Under the pieces are notes generated by a model. It searched no databases and was not told the origin of the DNA. It saw nothing but the letters and a program-made list of their open reading frames with translations. Below are positions 55,636 to 64,000 of a stretch of DNA of 64,000 nucleotides, piece by piece. Position 1 is the first letter of the stretch, and each line of letters begins with the position of its first letter. Origin of the DNA: Actinomycetota bacterium (GTDB lineage: Bacteria > Actinomycetota > Acidimicrobiia > Actinomarinales > Actinomarinaceae); assembly GCA_014239265.1 (NCBI GenBank), contig JAAZZH010000001.1:107419-171418 (forward strand), in the 5' to 3' direction. Made by a program: the position numbers and the translations under genes.

Positions 55636-56898
55636 ATGAATAATAAAATTTTTGCCTTAGTTGATTGTAATAATTTTTATGCCTCATGTGAGCGTGTTTT
55701 TAATCCGAAGCTAGAAGGTAAACCGATCGTAGTGCTTTCTAATAATGATGGATGTATTATCGCTAGGTCAAATGAGGCAAAAGCTTTGGGTATTCCTATG
55801 GGTGCTCCATTTTTTAAATACAAACAGTTGATTAATAGAAATAATGTTCACGTATTTTCCTCTAACTACACTTTTTATGGAGATATGTCTGCAAGGGTAA
55901 TGACTTCTCTGAAATCTCTTGTCAATGAAATAGAAATCTACTCTATTGATGAAGCATTTTTAGATATAAGTAGTTTTGCTTACTGTGACCTAGAGGAGAC
56001 AGCTAGAGAGATAAAAACTCTCATAAAGCAGTGGACGGGAATACCTGTTTCTATTGGAATAGGTTCTTCCAAAACATTAGCCAAAATTGCAAACAGGCAG
56101 GCAAAAAAAGATGCAGTAGATGTATTTGATATAAGAAATTTAGGCGTGAAAAAAGATATATTGGAACAACTTCCCATAGAAGAAATATGGGGAATCTCAA
56201 CAAGATGGGGTAGAAGATTAAGAAAAATCGGGGTAGAGACTGCGCAGGATTTAGCTGAAGCAAATCCAAGACATGTGAGAAAGACAATAAGCATCGTAGG
56301 GGAGAGGATTCATTATGAATTGAATGGCATATCTTGCATAGGAATAGAAGAAGTTAAAAATAAAAAAAATATTATCTCATCAAAGTCGTTTGGGAAAAAG
56401 GTCTCTCGTGTTCAAGAGCTAGAGGAAGCAGTATCAAACTACACGGCAAGGGCATGTGAAAAATTAAGACAGCAGAATTCAAGGGCGCAAGGATTGTATG
56501 TATTTCTAAGAACAAGTCCACATATAGAAAGGGACAAACAGTACAGCAACGGCATGAGCACTCATTTCTCTATCCCAACAAGCAATACCTCAAAAATAAT
56601 AAAAGAAGCAAAAAGGCTTACAAACAAATTATTTCTTCCAGGATATGAGTACCAGAAAATAGGAGTGATGCTTTTGAATATTTCAGATGCAAAAAATGAA
56701 CAAGGTAGTTTTCTCGATAATGAAAACTATAGCAAATCAGACACAGTCATGAAATCTTTAGACACAGTGAACAAACAGTTCGGATCAGGTGCATTGATGC
56801 TTGGTGCACAGGGGATACAGAAGAATTGGAGAATGAGAGCAGATAGAAAGTCTGGGGCCTACACAACAAATCTTAAAGATTTACCGATTGTTAAGTAA
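55636..56898 (+). CDS. umuC: Y-family DNA polymerase UmuC (Pol V catalytic subunit)
   Basis: The N-terminus FALVDCNNFYASCERVFNP...PIVVLSNNDGCIIARS is the typical UmuC/DinB start. Confidence 0.85.
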   Translation: MNNKIFALVDCNNFYASCERVFNPKLEGKPIVVLSNNDGCIIARSNEAKALGIPMGAPFFKYKQLINRNNVHVFSSNYTFYGDMSARVMTSLKSLVNEIEIYSIDEAFLDISSFAYCDLEETAREIKTLIKQWTGIPVSIGIGSSKTLAKIANRQAKKDAVDVFDIRNLGVKKDILEQLPIEEIWGISTRWGRRLRKIGVETAQDLAEANPRHVRKTISIVGERIHYELNGISCIGIEEVKNKKNIISSKSFGKKVSRVQELEEAVSNYTARACEKLRQQNSRAQGLYVFLRTSPHIERDKQYSNGMSTHFSIPTSNTSKIIKEAKRLTNKLFLPGYEYQKIGVMLLNISDAKNEQGSFLDNENYSKSDTVMKSLDTVNKQFGSGALMLGAQGIQKNWRMRADRKSGAYTTNLKDLPIVK

Positions 56899-60014: not shown

Positions 60015-60776
60015 TTAGGTAGTTTTACCTATTATATCTTTAACTCTATCGGTATCAACAGGGTTGTTGAGAACCCCATCTACTTTAAAATCAGTCCCAA
60101 TAATTCCAATATCGGCTATTTTAGAAAAATCTTGTATATTTTCACCATTTAATCCTGAACCTATTGCTAGTTTGCCTTTTGGTACAATATTCCTAATCCT
60201 ATTTAGATCTTCAATATTTGTAACTTCACCTGTTCCGTCACCACTAACTATAATTACGTCAGCCCCTGCTCTTTCTAGTAATTCCTTTGTGTGGTTTTCT
60301 ATTTTCGCCCCTTGAGGTGGGGTAGCATGCTTAACAAAGACATCCGCAAAAACTTGTATATCTTTCGAAAGAGTATTTCTGAACTGTGAAACGTCATATG
60401 ATTTACCTTCAATTATTCCTTGATCTGTATACATAATGTTATTTAGTACGTTTATGCGTACAAAATTAGCATTAATAGCCTCAGCAATTGCTAAAGCACT
60501 TATTCCATCATTTCTTAAAACATTTATACCGATATCAAGATTTTTATTTAGCTCTAAATTTGAAGCTACAGTCGTGAAGCTTACCAAGGATCTTTTTGAT
60601 AAATTATCTTTAACAAATGGAGCATCGCCAAAATTTTCAATAATAATGCCATCTACACCACCTTCGGTAAGTCCATTTATGTCATTTTGAGCAAGTGTAG
60701 TAATTTCAGGAATGGATAATACGTTAGAAGTTGATCCAGGAAGACCTTTTAAGTGTATAACACCATAAATTTTCAT
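60015..60776 (-). CDS. BtpA/SgcQ-family TIM-barrel protein
   Basis: The N-terminus KIYGVIHLKGLPGSTS and the overall pattern resemble BtpA. Confidence 0.55.
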   Translation of the reverse strand: MKIYGVIHLKGLPGSTSNVLSIPEITTLAQNDINGLTEGGVDGIIIENFGDAPFVKDNLSKRSLVSFTTVASNLELNKNLDIGINVLRNDGISALAIAEAINANFVRINVLNNIMYTDQGIIEGKSYDVSQFRNTLSKDIQVFADVFVKHATPPQGAKIENHTKELLERAGADVIIVSGDGTGEVTNIEDLNRIRNIVPKGKLAIGSGLNGENIQDFSKIADIGIIGTDFKVDGVLNNPVDTDRVKDIIGKTT

Positions 60777-60778
60777 TA

Positions 60779-61516
60779 TTAAATTTTAACGTGATTAGTT
60801 TTTAATAATTCTTTTGCAAATTCACCCTCAGCAGTCAAAGTCGGTTTGAATCCTTTTCCAGTTCTACCCGTCACCACTCGACACCAATCGCCAGCGTTAC
60901 CATTAATTGTATTTTCCGATTTTTCATCACCAAACTGCCAAGCTCTATACTCTGGTCCGATTAACTCTATCCTGACATTTTCATATTTCAGTTTATTGAG
61001 TTTGGATATTTTTTCAATATTAAGGAACCCATAAAGCGCAACATGTTCAATCCTGACTGAATCTTCATAATCTTTTTTCATGCATTCGTATATATCTAAA
61101 CCATGTGACCAAGTTTCCGAAAGTTTTGTTGCTGCAAATGTTAGGTAGTCAATCTCATTATTCCACCATTTAATCTTCCTTCCAGGAGTAGCATCTGCAA
61201 GTATTTCAACAACCTTAGCCCTCGATAGCCTCCACCACTCAATGACGTCTTGGGGCCGCATATCCTTACCTTTGGCAATAGATTTTTTTTCGAATTTACC
61301 TAATCCGGTTGGACCTCTAAATTTATTAAAATCAGTACCCTTTTTTTTAAGTGCATTAAAAGCCAGATCTTCTAAGCCTGCTAGATAGCTCACGTGTTCG
61401 GTAATTGTCCAATTTTTAAAGGTTGTTTTAGTATTCCAGTTCCTTACAGGAATACTTTGTAAGTATTGGTCTAGCAATTGTTGTTCAGCAACGAGGCTAC
61501 TTAGGATTTCTTTCAC
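60779..61516 (-). CDS. DinB_2 / mycothiol-maleylpyruvate-isomerase N-terminal-domain protein
   Basis: The N-terminal pattern is L..E...L..YL......W...T...NWTI.EHV.YLA. Confidence 0.45.
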   Translation of the reverse strand: MKEILSSLVAEQQLLDQYLQSIPVRNWNTKTTFKNWTITEHVSYLAGLEDLAFNALKKKGTDFNKFRGPTGLGKFEKKSIAKGKDMRPQDVIEWWRLSRAKVVEILADATPGRKIKWWNNEIDYLTFAATKLSETWSHGLDIYECMKKDYEDSVRIEHVALYGFLNIEKISKLNKLKYENVRIELIGPEYRAWQFGDEKSENTINGNAGDWCRVVTGRTGKGFKPTLTAEGEFAKELLKTNHVKI

Positions 61517-61805: not shown

Positions 61806-61892
61806 GTCATAAGGATTCTAATATCTGGCGTATATTTGGTAAAAGTTTTTATTATTGGCCTAAATGGTTAGTAAAGAGCATAACTTTTCTAC

Positions 61893-62272
61893 ATGTTAAA
61901 AGCATTAAATTCAATCATTCAAAGATAGGTAGTTTTGTTATAGGTAGTAACATTCTTCTTCTTGAAACTAGGGGAGTTGTTACCGGTAAGATTCGCAAAA
62001 CTCCACTGACCTATGCTAGAACAAATAAAGGATACGTAGTAGCAGCATCTTATGGAGGTAGAGATGAGATCCCACAATGGTTTCATAACCTTCAAGACAA
62101 TGAAAACTACATTACTGTCGATAATATACGAATAAAAGTTGTGCACAACATTATTCCTGTAGCCAACCAGGAATCTTATTGGTTTGAGCTAGTTAAGGTT
62201 TATAAAACTTTCGAACAATATAAAGTAAGGACAGAAAGAGATATTCCAATTGTCGAGTTTATTAAAGCTTAG
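61893..62272 (+). pseudogene. Ddn-family deazaflavin-dependent nitroreductase paralog, frameshifted at its 5' end (no in-frame start; ATG 61893 is one base out of frame)
   Basis: Frame-2 translation from 61922 gives KIGSFVIGSNILLLETRGVVTGKIRKTPLTYARTNKGYVVAASYGGRDEIPQWFHNL...IPIVEFIKA. This is highly similar to the 2545..2967 protein. Adding one A to the A4 run at 61898-61901 joins ATG 61893 in frame (MLKSIKFNHSKIGSF...). Confidence 0.6.
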
Positions 62273-63248
62273 GTTTTATATTCGGACCACTTCTCACCAC
62301 TGTATTCCATAATGTATTGTAATGATCAATATCTTCAGTGTTTACGTGTGGAATTACCATATTTTTCCAGGTCTCCATCAAAGGGTCCGAAGAATTTTTA
62401 TACAGGTCTAGTCCAACTGGAATTCTTTCTACAATCGTTCTGAGACTCATAGGTGTTTCAATATTCACACTGATATCATCGGAAACAAAAGAGTTGTTAA
62501 TTTCAATTGATAACTTAATAATTAATTGAACAAATTCACTCTGGAGGTTTGGATATCTTTTTTTGAAAATGGCCTCTAACTGTTCTTTGCTTGGGAAAGG
62601 TTTATCCCATATTACCCAACGGTCTGCAAAAGCTTTATTCAATGTCTGTGTTCCTGCATAATCTCTCAAACTAGTTGGGTTCATTGTTCCAAAAATAAAT
62701 GTGTCATTACGTAATTCAATAACTTCACCATTCGGTAATTCAAGTTTTTTGTGTCTGTCTAAGAGAGAGTGGAGGGCAAACAAAACTTCTGGACCTGCAG
62801 CATTTAATTCTGACAGGTTTACAAATGATGGCCCTCTTAACGCCCGTGTCAATTCTCCATCTTGCCACTTACTGTCGGTACCACCAATACCATCACCATA
62901 AAGCTGAACAGAACCTAATAAGGTAACATCTCTTACTTCTCCAGATAAGGGGATCCTGTAATAAGGAAATTTTAATTTTGCAGCTAATTGTTCTATGTCA
63001 TGATCCTTACCAGTTCCCATGTGTCCTTTTAGCGCAATATGAATTGGTATTTCGTTATCAAAAGTTTCCTTCTTGCTTTTAATTATTTTCGCCAGTTTAT
63101 ATTGCGTACCTAGATCTACATAGTTTTCATCTACACTTGGAATTCTTTCTGATCTGGATTTAAAATCTTCAATTTTTTTATCAAGGACACATTCCTCAAT
63201 TGAAACATTGTCTTTTCCATTCGGATCTTTAAAAAGTTGTTTAGCCAT
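62262..63248 (-). CDS. AAA+ ATPase of the CbbQ/NorQ/MoxR (AAA_5) type with altered Walker A (GHMGTGKD) and Walker B (SELNAA) motifs
   Basis: Both motifs were verified by reverse-translating nucleotides 63000-63050 and 62785-62840. A CbbQ_C-like C-terminus is present. Confidence 0.65.
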   Translation of the reverse strand: MAKQLFKDPNGKDNVSIEECVLDKKIEDFKSRSERIPSVDENYVDLGTQYKLAKIIKSKKETFDNEIPIHIALKGHMGTGKDHDIEQLAAKLKFPYYRIPLSGEVRDVTLLGSVQLYGDGIGGTDSKWQDGELTRALRGPSFVNLSELNAAGPEVLFALHSLLDRHKKLELPNGEVIELRNDTFIFGTMNPTSLRDYAGTQTLNKAFADRWVIWDKPFPSKEQLEAIFKKRYPNLQSEFVQLIIKLSIEINNSFVSDDISVNIETPMSLRTIVERIPVGLDLYKNSSDPLMETWKNMVIPHVNTEDIDHYNTLWNTVVRSGPNIKPKL

Positions 63249-64000
63249 TTATGCTGCTCCTGATGATTCTTTAACGTTTCTTATAAGTATATCCTTTGTT
63301 ATGTTTACTATTGAATGGATAAGTTCTTCTGGTCTACTAATTTGTGTTCTATTTTGATATTCTTTCCAGGTACCCCTATCTCCAATACCTATTCCAATAA
63401 CATCTATGCCAAATCTACTTGAGTAATCGATAGAACTTTTTAAATCTGAAAGAGACCCTCTTGTCATGCCATCGGACAATACTGCTAATAATTTAGTATT
63501 TGATCCATGTTCTAACAGTCTTTTTGTTGAGAACATGATATTCCTTTCATCAACATTTGTACCACGCTCAAACATACTTGCAGGTGGATGTTCATCTGTA
63601 GACGTTAATGCATCAAGAGAAGACCTTAAATTCCTTGAAAACTCAATCAACCCAATAAATTTTTCATACTGGTTTTTCCACGAGTCCTCATATCTTTTAA
63701 CGAAGTAATGATTTGTCGTGTTGAAATAAAATTCAGCATTTGATCCATAATTAGTATTCAACATTGAAGAAACTGCCATCTTTCTTTTTAAGTACATTTC
63801 TTCATTTTCATTTTCATTCGCCAAGAATGCTCTGTTAAATATTGCAACTTCAAAATCAACATTAAGTTCATGACAAATTTGCGATAGGTAGTTGGCACCA
63901 ATCAGAGCTGCAGATAGAGACCAAGGGTATACTTCTCCTTTCTTTTTCTCCAACATAGAACCACTTCCATCGATTAATAAAGATACTGCGTAGGACTTAT
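63249..64000 (-). CDS. von Willebrand factor A (VWA) domain protein, 5' end beyond the window
   Basis: The frame is open to the window edge. The MIDAS motif LLIDGSGSM lies just upstream of the first ATG. The C-terminus has a VWA-like DVIGIGIG. Confidence 0.65.
   Translation of the reverse strand, partial: KSYAVSLLIDGSGSMLEKKKGEVYPWSLSAALIGANYLSQICHELNVDFEVAIFNRAFLANENENEEMYLKRKMAVSSMLNTNYGSNAEFYFNTTNHYFVKRYEDSWKNQYEKFIGLIEFSRNLRSSLDALTSTDEHPPASMFERGTNVDERNIMFSTKRLLEHGSNTKLLAVLSDGMTRGSLSDLKSSIDYSSRFGIDVIGIGIGDRGTWKEYQNRTQISRPEELIHSIVNITKDILIRNVKESSGAA

Follow-up and report, generated by a model that had tools for sequence, protein, structure and literature searches.

Near one end of the window (the whole 64,000-nucleotide stretch of DNA analyzed here), two adjacent genes on the minus strand encode an AAA+ ATPase and a protein with a VWA domain. 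The features on which our analysis rests are as follows, each on the minus strand:

62262 to 63248, minus strand: gene for a CobS-like AAA+ (AAA_5) ATPase, a 328-aa open reading frame with Pfam, TIGR01650, and PDB matches
63003 to 63026, minus strand: Walker A motif (P-loop) GHMGTGKD, with Asp82 in place of Ser/Thr at the position after the lysine (K+1), from the re-read sequence and alignments to CobS and midasin
62859 to 62945, minus strand: helix-2 insert region, residues 102-130, near-invariant across the ATPase family
62808 to 62825, minus strand: Walker B strand FVNLSE, with Ser146 in place of Asp and Glu147 retained, from the re-read sequence and alignments
62679 to 62681, minus strand: sensor-1 Asn190 (in FGTMNP), invariant and aligned with N186 of CobS
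62619 to 62621, minus strand: arginine finger Arg210 (in AFADRW), invariant; R210 of CobS is a trans-acting finger
62439 to 62441, minus strand: sensor-2 Arg270 (in PMSLR), invariant and aligned with the MSPR of CobS, whose sensor 2 is R271
63249 to 64000, minus strand, running off the end of the window: C-terminal 249 residues of a CobT-like VWA partner, from the translation and the Pfam CobT_C match
63957 to 63971, minus strand: MIDAS motif DxSxS (DGSGS), aligned with the MIDAS of CobT
63555 to 63557 and 63471 to 63473, minus strand: the distal MIDAS residues N and D, respectively, aligned with the MIDAS of CobT

The nucleotide pocket of the ATPase departs from consensus at two positions. 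The Walker A motif (consensus GxxxxGK[ST]) keeps its glycines and Lys81 and has Asp at K+1, and the Walker B motif (consensus hhhhD[DE]) keeps the catalytic Glu and has Ser for the preceding Asp; Asn144, at the D-2 position of Walker B, is an unusual polar residue. Both substitutions had been described in an earlier note on this DNA, which read Walker A as GHMGTGKD from the codons gga cac atg gga act ggt aag gat, exactly as we find it. The alignments bear the substitutions out: with HMMER, the AAA domains of midasin place GKT opposite GKD and LDELN opposite LSELN, and with BLASTP, annotated CobS places GTGKS opposite GTGKD and VFDE opposite NLSE, D82 corresponding to S78 of CobS and S146 to D141. 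In the alignments to CobS, midasin, NorQ, and CbbQ alike, the two residues occupy the canonical Ser/Thr and Asp positions. The earlier note had held that its reading would fail if the motifs were mis-assigned and a canonical GKT/DE pair lay elsewhere in the protein. Mis-assignment is ruled out by the midasin and CobS alignments and because a second, canonical GK[ST]/hhhhDE pair occurs nowhere in the 328 residues. The proposal that a sensor has been lost through a change of NRA to NAA must be rejected, since proteins of the CobS/midasin clade read NLA, DAG, or DFA there and the true sensor 1 is N190, which is intact. The AAA+ catalytic set is complete, with N190, R210, and R270 matching N186, R210, and R271 of CobS. 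An AF2 model of the ATPase has a pLDDT of 73 overall and of about 58 at residues 71-80 (the P-loop), with a low-confidence helix-2 insert; in Foldseek it returns a MoxR-like fold, with NorQ, CbbQ, and Rea1 as the top matches.

The earlier assignment of this protein to the CbbQ/MoxR-type AAA+ ATPases stands in part. The protein does match the MoxR-related family AAA_5 (PF07728; 55.2 bits, cut-off 22; residues 70-210) and has a MIDAS-bearing VWA partner, but profile comparisons show it to be CobS-like rather than a CbbQ or MoxR protein proper. For MoxR proper (Pfam AAA_3, PF07726) the score is 17.6 bits (cut-off 27) and for GvpN (TIGR02640) 22 bits (cut-off 266.8), and no CbbQ_C domain was matched in the profile search. 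PDB matches comprise midasin, CobS, NorQ, and CbbQ, the latter two weaker than CobS, and the named matches that rank best are PDB CobS and the CobS model TIGR01650 (E = 5.6e-17, residues 23-273), for which the score of 61.9 bits lies below the cut-off of 558.55. Relative to CobS of the CobNST system (Brucella melitensis 9UJV/9UKA etc.; bioRxiv 10.64898/2026.07.21.739949), the ATPase has the same length of 328 aa and is colinear, with the N-terminal extension and additional helices at the C terminus in common; it shares the P-loop pattern GxxGTGKxxxIEQ and has sensor 1, the arginine finger, and sensor 2 at near-identical positions. It differs in overall sequence (28% identity) and in having Asp at K+1 where CobS has Ser and Ser in Walker B where CobS has Asp. 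The NorQ-NorD, CbbQ-CbbO, and midasin/Rea1 systems share the AAA_5 fold with a helix-2 insert and the logic by which an AAA+ ring is coupled to the binding of a client through a MIDAS, whereas their Walker motifs are canonical, and NorQ and CbbQ are without the CobS-type N- and C-terminal extensions.

The partner is CobT-like: its N-terminal domain carries HExxH...E, its VWA domain has all the residues of the MIDAS, and a "shaft" segment is conserved. In close relatives the full-length protein has 650-656 aa, and the whole gene is seen at locus L001 (8028-9998). The partner scores 23.8-24.6 bits with Pfam CobT_C (PF11775; cut-off 21), its shaft and VWA region match annotated CobT with a probability of 96.5% (E = 8e-10, hhalign), and a profile search of the PDB matches CobT at E = 8e-5. 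As the earlier note had stated, the MIDAS is intact. The distal N and D are present in addition to DGSGS: D417, S419, S421, N555, and D583 (L001 numbering) correspond to D422, S424, S426, N518, and D546 of CobT, and all five are invariant across the partner family. Also invariant is the segment 363-400, which AF2 models as disordered, like the shaft of CobT. The AF2 model of the partner has Foldseek matches for the VWA domain only, which is structurally nearest to the VWA domain of NorD and the MIDAS domain of Rea1. As for the N-domain, the Pfam CobT N-terminal domain has no match in the partner, and the profile search against PDB gave a very weak match to CobT residues 100-148; its HExxH...E motif is intact and invariant. 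Given this motif, the predicted order of helices and sheets, and the description of the N-domain of CobT as M48C-like (bioRxiv 10.64898/2026.07.21.739949), the N-domain of the partner may be zincin-like. The partner and CobT are alike in size (about 650 aa) and in their succession of M48C-like N-domain, linker, shaft, and VWA domain with a five-residue MIDAS, and differ in that HExxH...E has been lost in CobT and retained in the Acidimicrobiia partner.

The stop codon of the partner (63249 to 63251) abuts the ATG of the ATPase (63246 to 63248), which places the VWA gene upstream. Of the 83 loci, 79 have the same order, the two genes overlapping there (-1, -4, or -8 nt), and the pair is translationally coupled within an operon. 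The earlier note was right that this order is unusual: it is the inverse of that in cobS-cobT, norQ-norD, and the phage and plasmid homologs. The chromosomal position is constant, between dapB/dapA on one side and MDMPI_N-BtpA on the other, from Actinomarina to high-GC Acidimicrobiia. These conserved neighbors, an MDMPI_N/DinB-like protein and BtpA, are candidate clients of the pair.

These comparisons bear on two other origins for the pair. The genes might simply be the CobS and CobT of an aerobic cobaltochelatase whose CobN is encoded elsewhere, as the sizes of the two proteins (328 and about 650 aa), the architecture colinear with CobS and CobT, and one JGI annotation as "cobaltochelatase CobS" would suggest. 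We consider this improbable in view of the TIGR01650 score and the 28% identity given above, of the HExxH motif that CobT is without, and of the missing match to the Pfam CobT N-domain. Moreover, cob genes are absent from four different neighborhoods, no open reading frame of at least 900 aa occurs within the 64-kb window, and the Actinomarinales have streamlined genomes of about 1 Mb and are described as needing exogenous vitamins. Both the gene order and the neighborhoods without CobN or a cob context set the Acidimicrobiia pair apart from cobS-cobT.

Alternatively, the pair could be a mobile-element or anti-phage defense module that resides in the chromosome, akin to the CobS/CobT-like genes that phages and conjugative plasmids carry. 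The nearest homologs outside the family in annotated collections are indeed such pairs, with PHROG matches (PHROG 249 with PHROG 1576/5298/17276), and are exemplified by gp55-gp56 of Brevibacterium phage Cantare, the AAA and VWA genes of an IncHI plasmid, and a 300-kb replicon of C. difficile BI1. Like the pair described here, they combine a CobS-like AAA_5 protein with a VWA partner that has an N-terminal HExxH, without CobN. In contrast, their identity to our proteins is only 24-29%, their order is ATPase then VWA, their Walker residues are mostly canonical, C. difficile (GKN) and Cantare (NE) each deviating at one residue, and they are mobile, whereas the Acidimicrobiia pair is syntenic and chromosomal. 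Given the constant chromosomal position, identities to the mobile-element versions below 30%, the lack of relatives above 29% identity in IMG/VR, and the finding that neither the ATPase nor the partner matched a PADLOC defense-system model, we regard such an origin as very improbable.

Several lines of evidence indicate that the exchange of Asp82 and Ser146 is a hallmark of the ATPase family. Homologs with the same GKD and SE substitutions were sought and found both among cluster representatives and in genomic loci. An acidic residue at K+1 together with Ser-Glu is present in all 242 full-length cluster representatives (K+1 being Asp in 241 and Glu in one). GHMGTGKD with N[LM]SELNAA is present in 83 of 83 genomic loci across the Acidimicrobiia, a set for which GHMGTGKD was part of the search pattern and N[LM]SELNAA lay outside it. 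The exchange is beyond chance given this invariance. The underlying codons vary, D82 being encoded by GAT 44 times and by GAC 43 times and S146 by all four TCN codons, and the pair is kept in both clades of the family despite only 56% identity between them. For the ATPase, dN is 0.07-0.19 with dS saturated, and omega is at most about 0.08 where it could be computed. K81, E147, N190, R210, R270, and the helix-2 insert are invariant in the family, the invariant columns of the insert lying within G103-G131. A decaying pseudogene or a sequencing artifact, for which nothing speaks except the unusual motifs themselves, has next to no probability: the frame is intact, hundreds of independent assemblies carry identical motifs, and omega lies far under 1. 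Decay of the gene is excluded by these conservation data.

In the CobS-like relatives sampled outside the family, the pair is canonical or changed at one position. K+1 is T or S in 97% of 569 Walker A motifs from the nearest large AAA_5 group, and among 12 CobS-like relatives compared, ten have GK[ST] with DE, including viral proteins with an identical GHMGTGK P-loop, two have a single change (C. difficile GKN and phage Cantare NE), and none has the swapped pair. Intermediate sister lineages with GKD and DE or with GKT and SE were not found among the matches listed from a search of 1.84 billion representatives, these being mostly multi-domain midasins together with about ten single-domain clusters.

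In P-loop NTPases, the Ser/Thr at K+1 and the Asp of Walker B form a hydrogen-bonded pair at the Mg2+ site (PMC9599734). We lean, by a small measure, toward the hypothesis that the Acidimicrobiia ATPase is an active CobST-like chaperone motor in which this pair has undergone a compensatory reciprocal swap. The carboxylate would have moved from the Walker B position to K+1 of the P-loop, where Asp82 may ligate Mg2+ directly, and the hydroxyl from K+1 to the Walker B position, where Ser146 may form a hydrogen bond with Asp82; the contact between D82 and S146 is predicted by homology alone. Such an exchange of carboxylate and hydroxyl preserves the charge of the pair and its combined side-chain length. 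The pocket would then be rewired and not dead, with Glu147, Asn190, Arg210 (in trans), and Arg270 performing hydrolysis as in CobS. The ATPase would be the motor of a two-gene system that the class Acidimicrobiia carries on the chromosome and inherits vertically, a system homologous to the CobS-CobT module of the aerobic cobaltochelatase and to the phage and plasmid CobS/CobT-like pairs. By homology, it would assemble into a hexameric ring. The helix-2 inserts of CobS surround the shaft of CobT (bioRxiv 10.64898/2026.07.21.739949), and by analogy the insert of the ATPase is presumed to grip the shaft of its partner, clasping the conserved segment just upstream of the VWA domain. The MIDAS and the N-terminal zincin-like HExxH...E domain of the partner could thereby be offered to a client for remodeling or metallation. 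Swapping out either the Ser/Thr at K+1 or the Asp of Walker B normally abolishes the activity of P-loop NTPases (PMC9599734), a loss that we count against the swap model.

The same pocket could instead belong to a selected pseudo-ATPase or switch, whose ring binds ATP or ADP, or nothing, without turnover. Asp82 would here weaken or block the binding of Mg-ATP, and the ring would serve the VWA/zincin partner as a static scaffold or a nucleotide-gated adaptor. Both exchanged residues are held to be essential for hydrolysis (PMC9599734), and degenerate sites occur in multi-AAA relatives, the first midasin AAA domain matched reading GIGKK and ...TNIEHA. The single deviant sites of other CobS-like proteins point the same way, since the uncompensated changes in C. 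difficile and Cantare suggest that the clade may tolerate weakened sites, which makes a non-hydrolyzing role conceivable, and conservation alone does not separate binding from hydrolysis. However, what is usually lost from degenerate AAA+ sites is the catalytic Glu, the arginine finger, or the sensors, all of which are invariant here; the exchange is reciprocal and conserves charge; the sole variant at K+1 among the 242 representatives is Glu; and the helix-2 insert and the shaft of the partner are extremely conserved, as would be expected of a working motor. We judge a pseudo-ATPase the less likely of the two and favor the compensatory reading, given purifying selection on both residues, the restriction of K+1 to acidic residues, and the retention of the other catalytic residues.

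We found no prior description of this ATPase family in the literature on Walker A "GKD" and on CobS-like/CobT-like systems. The known exceptions to the pair include Gly at K+1 in NMP kinases and, in a few families, Glu or Asn in place of the Asp of Walker B (PMC9599734). They resemble the Acidimicrobiia ATPase in departing from two "strictly conserved" residues, and differ from it in being losses or conservative replacements and not a reciprocal exchange; the swapped pair, with Asp at K+1 and Ser in Walker B, is absent from the described exceptions that we found, the supplement of PMC9599734 included. Across all P-loop NTPases, the Ser/Thr at K+1 and the Asp of Walker B are described as the sole proton-capable residues with strict conservation (PMC9599734). 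We would advance only tentatively, and with somewhat less than even confidence, the fuller proposal that the ATPase has full Mg-ATPase activity with the polarity of its [Ser/Thr](K+1)-Asp(Walker B) pair reversed, and that the gene pair is an Acidimicrobiia-wide housekeeping AAA+/VWA/zincin machine. If this is true, the K+1/Walker B pair would be interchangeable as a unit. Models that treat the K+1 hydroxyl as a catalytic alkoxide and give the Walker B Asp the role of terminal proton trap would then meet, in this family, either a counter-example from nature or a boundary condition. Kept by a whole bacterial class, with the exchanged residues under strong purifying selection and the rest of the catalytic set intact, the ATPase amounts to a double mutant validated by evolution, and as such a natural test both of the pair as an interchangeable unit and of the proposed proton-relay mechanism. 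For the organisms themselves, the gene pair is among the few conserved genes without an assigned function in Ca. Actinomarina, a bacterium that is extremely streamlined and abundant in the ocean. It also connects the cobaltochelatase module CobST with a broader, apparently older group of CobS-like motors, in which the VWA partner retains a zincin HExxH.

From its sequence, the Walker motifs of the ATPase are correctly assigned, and both were re-read in the DNA of an intact gene:

62262..63248, minus strand: ATPase open reading frame, 328 aa
63003..63026, minus strand: Walker A, GHMGTGKD (K81, D82)
62808..62825, minus strand: Walker B strand, FVNLSE (S146, E147)

In HMMER alignments, GTGKD falls on GxGKT and VNLSELNAAGPEVL on IVLDELNLAPTDVL of midasin AAA domains, and in BLASTP against an annotated CobS from a Cereibacter plasmid, GHMGTGKDHDIEQ pairs with GYHGTGKSTHIEQ and FVNLSELNAA with AIVFDEYDAG. 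The DNA and the midasin and CobS alignments confirm what the earlier note had described, an Asp for the Walker A Thr/Ser and a Ser for the Walker B Asp, and the whole protein contains no second P-loop or hhhhDE, that is, no canonical GKT/DE pair elsewhere. Re-reading also located N190 in the sensor-1 stretch FGTMNP, R210 in the Arg-finger stretch AFADRW, and R270 in the sensor-2 stretch PMSLR. The layout (G75-D82, S146-E147, N190, R210, R270) is near position-for-position that of Brucella melitensis CobS, likewise 328 aa, with Walker A at G71-S78, Walker B at D141-E142, sensor 1 at N186, the R-finger at R210, and sensor 2 at R271 (bioRxiv 10.64898/2026.07.21.739949). The further claim that NAA deviates from a sensor NRA did not hold, as midasin has NLA, CobS DAG, and viral CobS-like proteins DFA at this place, and the true sensor 1 (N190) is intact.

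The ATPase belongs to the MoxR-related AAA_5 group and is CobS-like. It matches Pfam AAA_5 clearly and scores under the Pfam cut-off for AAA_3 (MoxR proper); its top named model is CobS TIGR01650, colinear over residues 23-273, with a score far short of the equivalog cut-off, and the GvpN model scores negligibly. The top viral family is PHROG 249 (phage "CobS"), PDB sequence matches rank midasin first, followed by CobS, NorQ and CbbQ, and Foldseek with the AF2 model (pLDDT 73) returns NorQ, CbbQ, and Rea1. Given these matches, with TIGR01650 the top named model, we therefore reject a CbbQ or NorQ identity; of the original label, CbbQ/MoxR-type, only the relationship to MoxR survives.

The partner gene lies directly upstream, its stop codon touching the ATPase ATG:

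63249..>64000, minus strand: partner (VWA protein) gene, 249 visible residues, running past the window end
63957..63971, minus strand: MIDAS of the partner, DGSGS, from translation and re-read DNA

In close relatives the partner is 650-656 aa long. Pfam CobT_C matches its C-terminal part just over the cut-off, the partner family profile matches PDB CobT (E 8e-5), hhalign pairs it with an annotated CobT at 96.5% probability across the pre-VWA segment and VWA domain, and 15/15 members tested match phage CobT-like PHROGs. The MIDAS is perfect, as had been reported: its five residues never vary in the partner family, and each aligns with its CobT counterpart. The segment directly before the VWA domain (~356-407) has many invariant residues and is disordered in the AF2 prediction, much like the CobT "shaft," which is ordered only once inserted into the nucleotide-bound CobS ring (bioRxiv 10.64898/2026.07.21.739949). 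In the N-domain, read from a full-length relative (L001 8028..9998) with AF2 for fold order, an invariant HExxH (H85, E86, H89) occupies a helix after a small sheet and an invariant Glu140 a later helix; CobT_N is M48C-peptidase-like (bioRxiv 10.64898/2026.07.21.739949). HExxH is absent from the one annotated CobT sequence compared, whereas the VWA partners of three phage/plasmid CobS-like ATPases have it at equal distance from the N-terminus. Thus, the Acidimicrobiia partner resembles the mobile-element versions, which retained the zincin motif, unlike chelatase CobT, which lost it. Together, ATPase and partner are a CobS/CobT-like AAA+/VWA pair of a known kind, in which the exchanged residues are a new variant.

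The VWA gene precedes the ATPase gene in a translationally coupled operon (overlaps of -1, -4 or -8 nt) at 79 of 83 loci. The gene order is indeed unusual, as first remarked: cobS-cobT and the pairs in phages and plasmids run the opposite way. The locus is syntenic throughout the class Acidimicrobiia, with dapB and dapA upstream on the other strand. Its surroundings in the window include:

60779..61516, minus strand: MDMPI_N/DinB_2-like gene, downstream of the pair
60015..60776, minus strand: BtpA-family gene, downstream of the pair
61823..62273, plus strand: F420H2-dependent quinone reductase-like gene (PF04075 in relatives)
55636..56898, plus strand: Y-family (UmuC/DinB-like, IMS) polymerase gene

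The first two persist downstream of the pair from Actinomarina through high-GC Acidimicrobiia (L088/L089), and in high-GC relatives they are joined by a LOG-family (Lysine_decarbox/LDcluster4) gene, whose overlap with the ATPase stop is 4 nt; the pair may be functionally linked to these three neighbors. There are no cob genes in the neighborhoods examined and no ORF of ≥900 aa within the 64-kb window, PADLOC gave zero matches, and the literature describes Actinomarinales as streamlined vitamin scavengers. The quinone reductase-like frame, convergent with the ATPase gene and overlapping its 3' end by 12 nt, is intact and lacks an ATG, GTG or TTG both at the position homologous to the start in relatives, where their GTG is replaced by GTA, and anywhere upstream. 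The codons upstream of that position are conserved, with mostly synonymous differences, which suggests that translation begins non-canonically, at the ATC of 61823, 7 nt downstream of an AAGGA. The polymerase gene adjoins a Peptidase_S24 (LexA/UmuD-like) gene in relatives, and variable small inserted genes, differing among genomes, separate it from an MFS transporter gene.

In a large comparative study, the K+1 Ser/Thr and the Walker B Asp were strictly conserved and mutually H-bonded at the Mg2+ site, the only exceptions given being Gly (NMP kinases) and Glu or Asn substitutions (PMC9599734). Among 569 GxxGxGK motifs of 133 midasin-type representatives, 552 have T or S at K+1 and three have D/E, all outside the AAA ring. 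Canonical Walker residues are present in 10 of the 12 CobS-like relatives read (a true CobS plus phage, plasmid, and IMG/VR proteins), and these ten include viral proteins in which the same GHMGTGK precedes a T or S and Walker B reads DEYD. A single deviant Mg-site residue occurs in a protein of the C. difficile BI1 300-kb replicon (L087 3185..4828; GEKGTGKN, INVDE) and in Brevibacterium phage Cantare gp55 (L085 3866..4888; GPSGAGKT, LLLNE). Compared with these 12 relatives and the midasin-type motifs, the reciprocal Asp/Ser exchange is found only in the Acidimicrobiia family. No IMG/VR relative exceeds 29% identity, and literature searches turned up neither the family nor a Walker A with GKD.

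By source names, the organism is Ca. Actinomarina, within Acidimicrobiia. When one genome per GTDB species was scanned, at least 336 genomes had a relative, and the best 80 are nearly all Actinomarinales or other Acidimicrobiia. Homologs with the same GKD/SE substitutions, which the earlier note proposed to seek, make up the family: GHMGTGKD and N[LM]SELNAA occur at 83/83 loci, found with a pattern that did not include the Walker B stretch, and among 244 cluster representatives pooled from two protein searches, every full-length one combines a Ser-Glu Walker B with an acidic residue at K+1 (241 Asp, 1 Glu). The sole Glu, in an Actinomarina-clade representative on a single 3.8-kb contig (P0037, GHMGTGKEQD), is accompanied by differences at several neighboring positions; it may be genuine variation or stem from an error-rich contig. 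The Actinomarina and high-GC clades share only ~56% identity, D82 is encoded by GAT (44) or GAC (43), and S146 by TCA, TCC, TCG, and TCT. ATPase dN is 0.07-0.19 with dS saturated, and omega is ≤0.08 where computable; K81, E147, N190, R210, R270, and nearly the entire helix-2 insert are invariant. This family-wide conservation, codon turnover, and low omega therefore exclude a pseudogene or artefact and show that selection acts specifically for the exchanged pair.

Judged by conservation, nucleotide binding and turnover look alike, and related proteins also have single deviant sites, so that a selected, hydrolysis-incompetent nucleotide switch is a serious, if rather unlikely, alternative. The most economical reading is that the ATPase would work as a CobST-like chaperone motor, the swap of its Mg2+/H-bond pair being compensatory. 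After such a swap, one carboxylate and one hydroxyl would remain with their summed side-chain length unchanged, at positions that, by homology, should be in mutual contact as in all canonical P-loop NTPases. Beside the pair stand invariant polar residues specific to the family (N144, two positions ahead of S146, and H83 and D84, downstream of the P-loop Lys), and they suggest that the site has been further re-wired locally. Thus, the original observation is confirmed and its interpretation partly supported. For P-loop catalysis, the exchanged pair is a clean natural experiment, and the CobS/CobT-like AAA+/VWA pair is a conserved machine in an abundant marine lineage.
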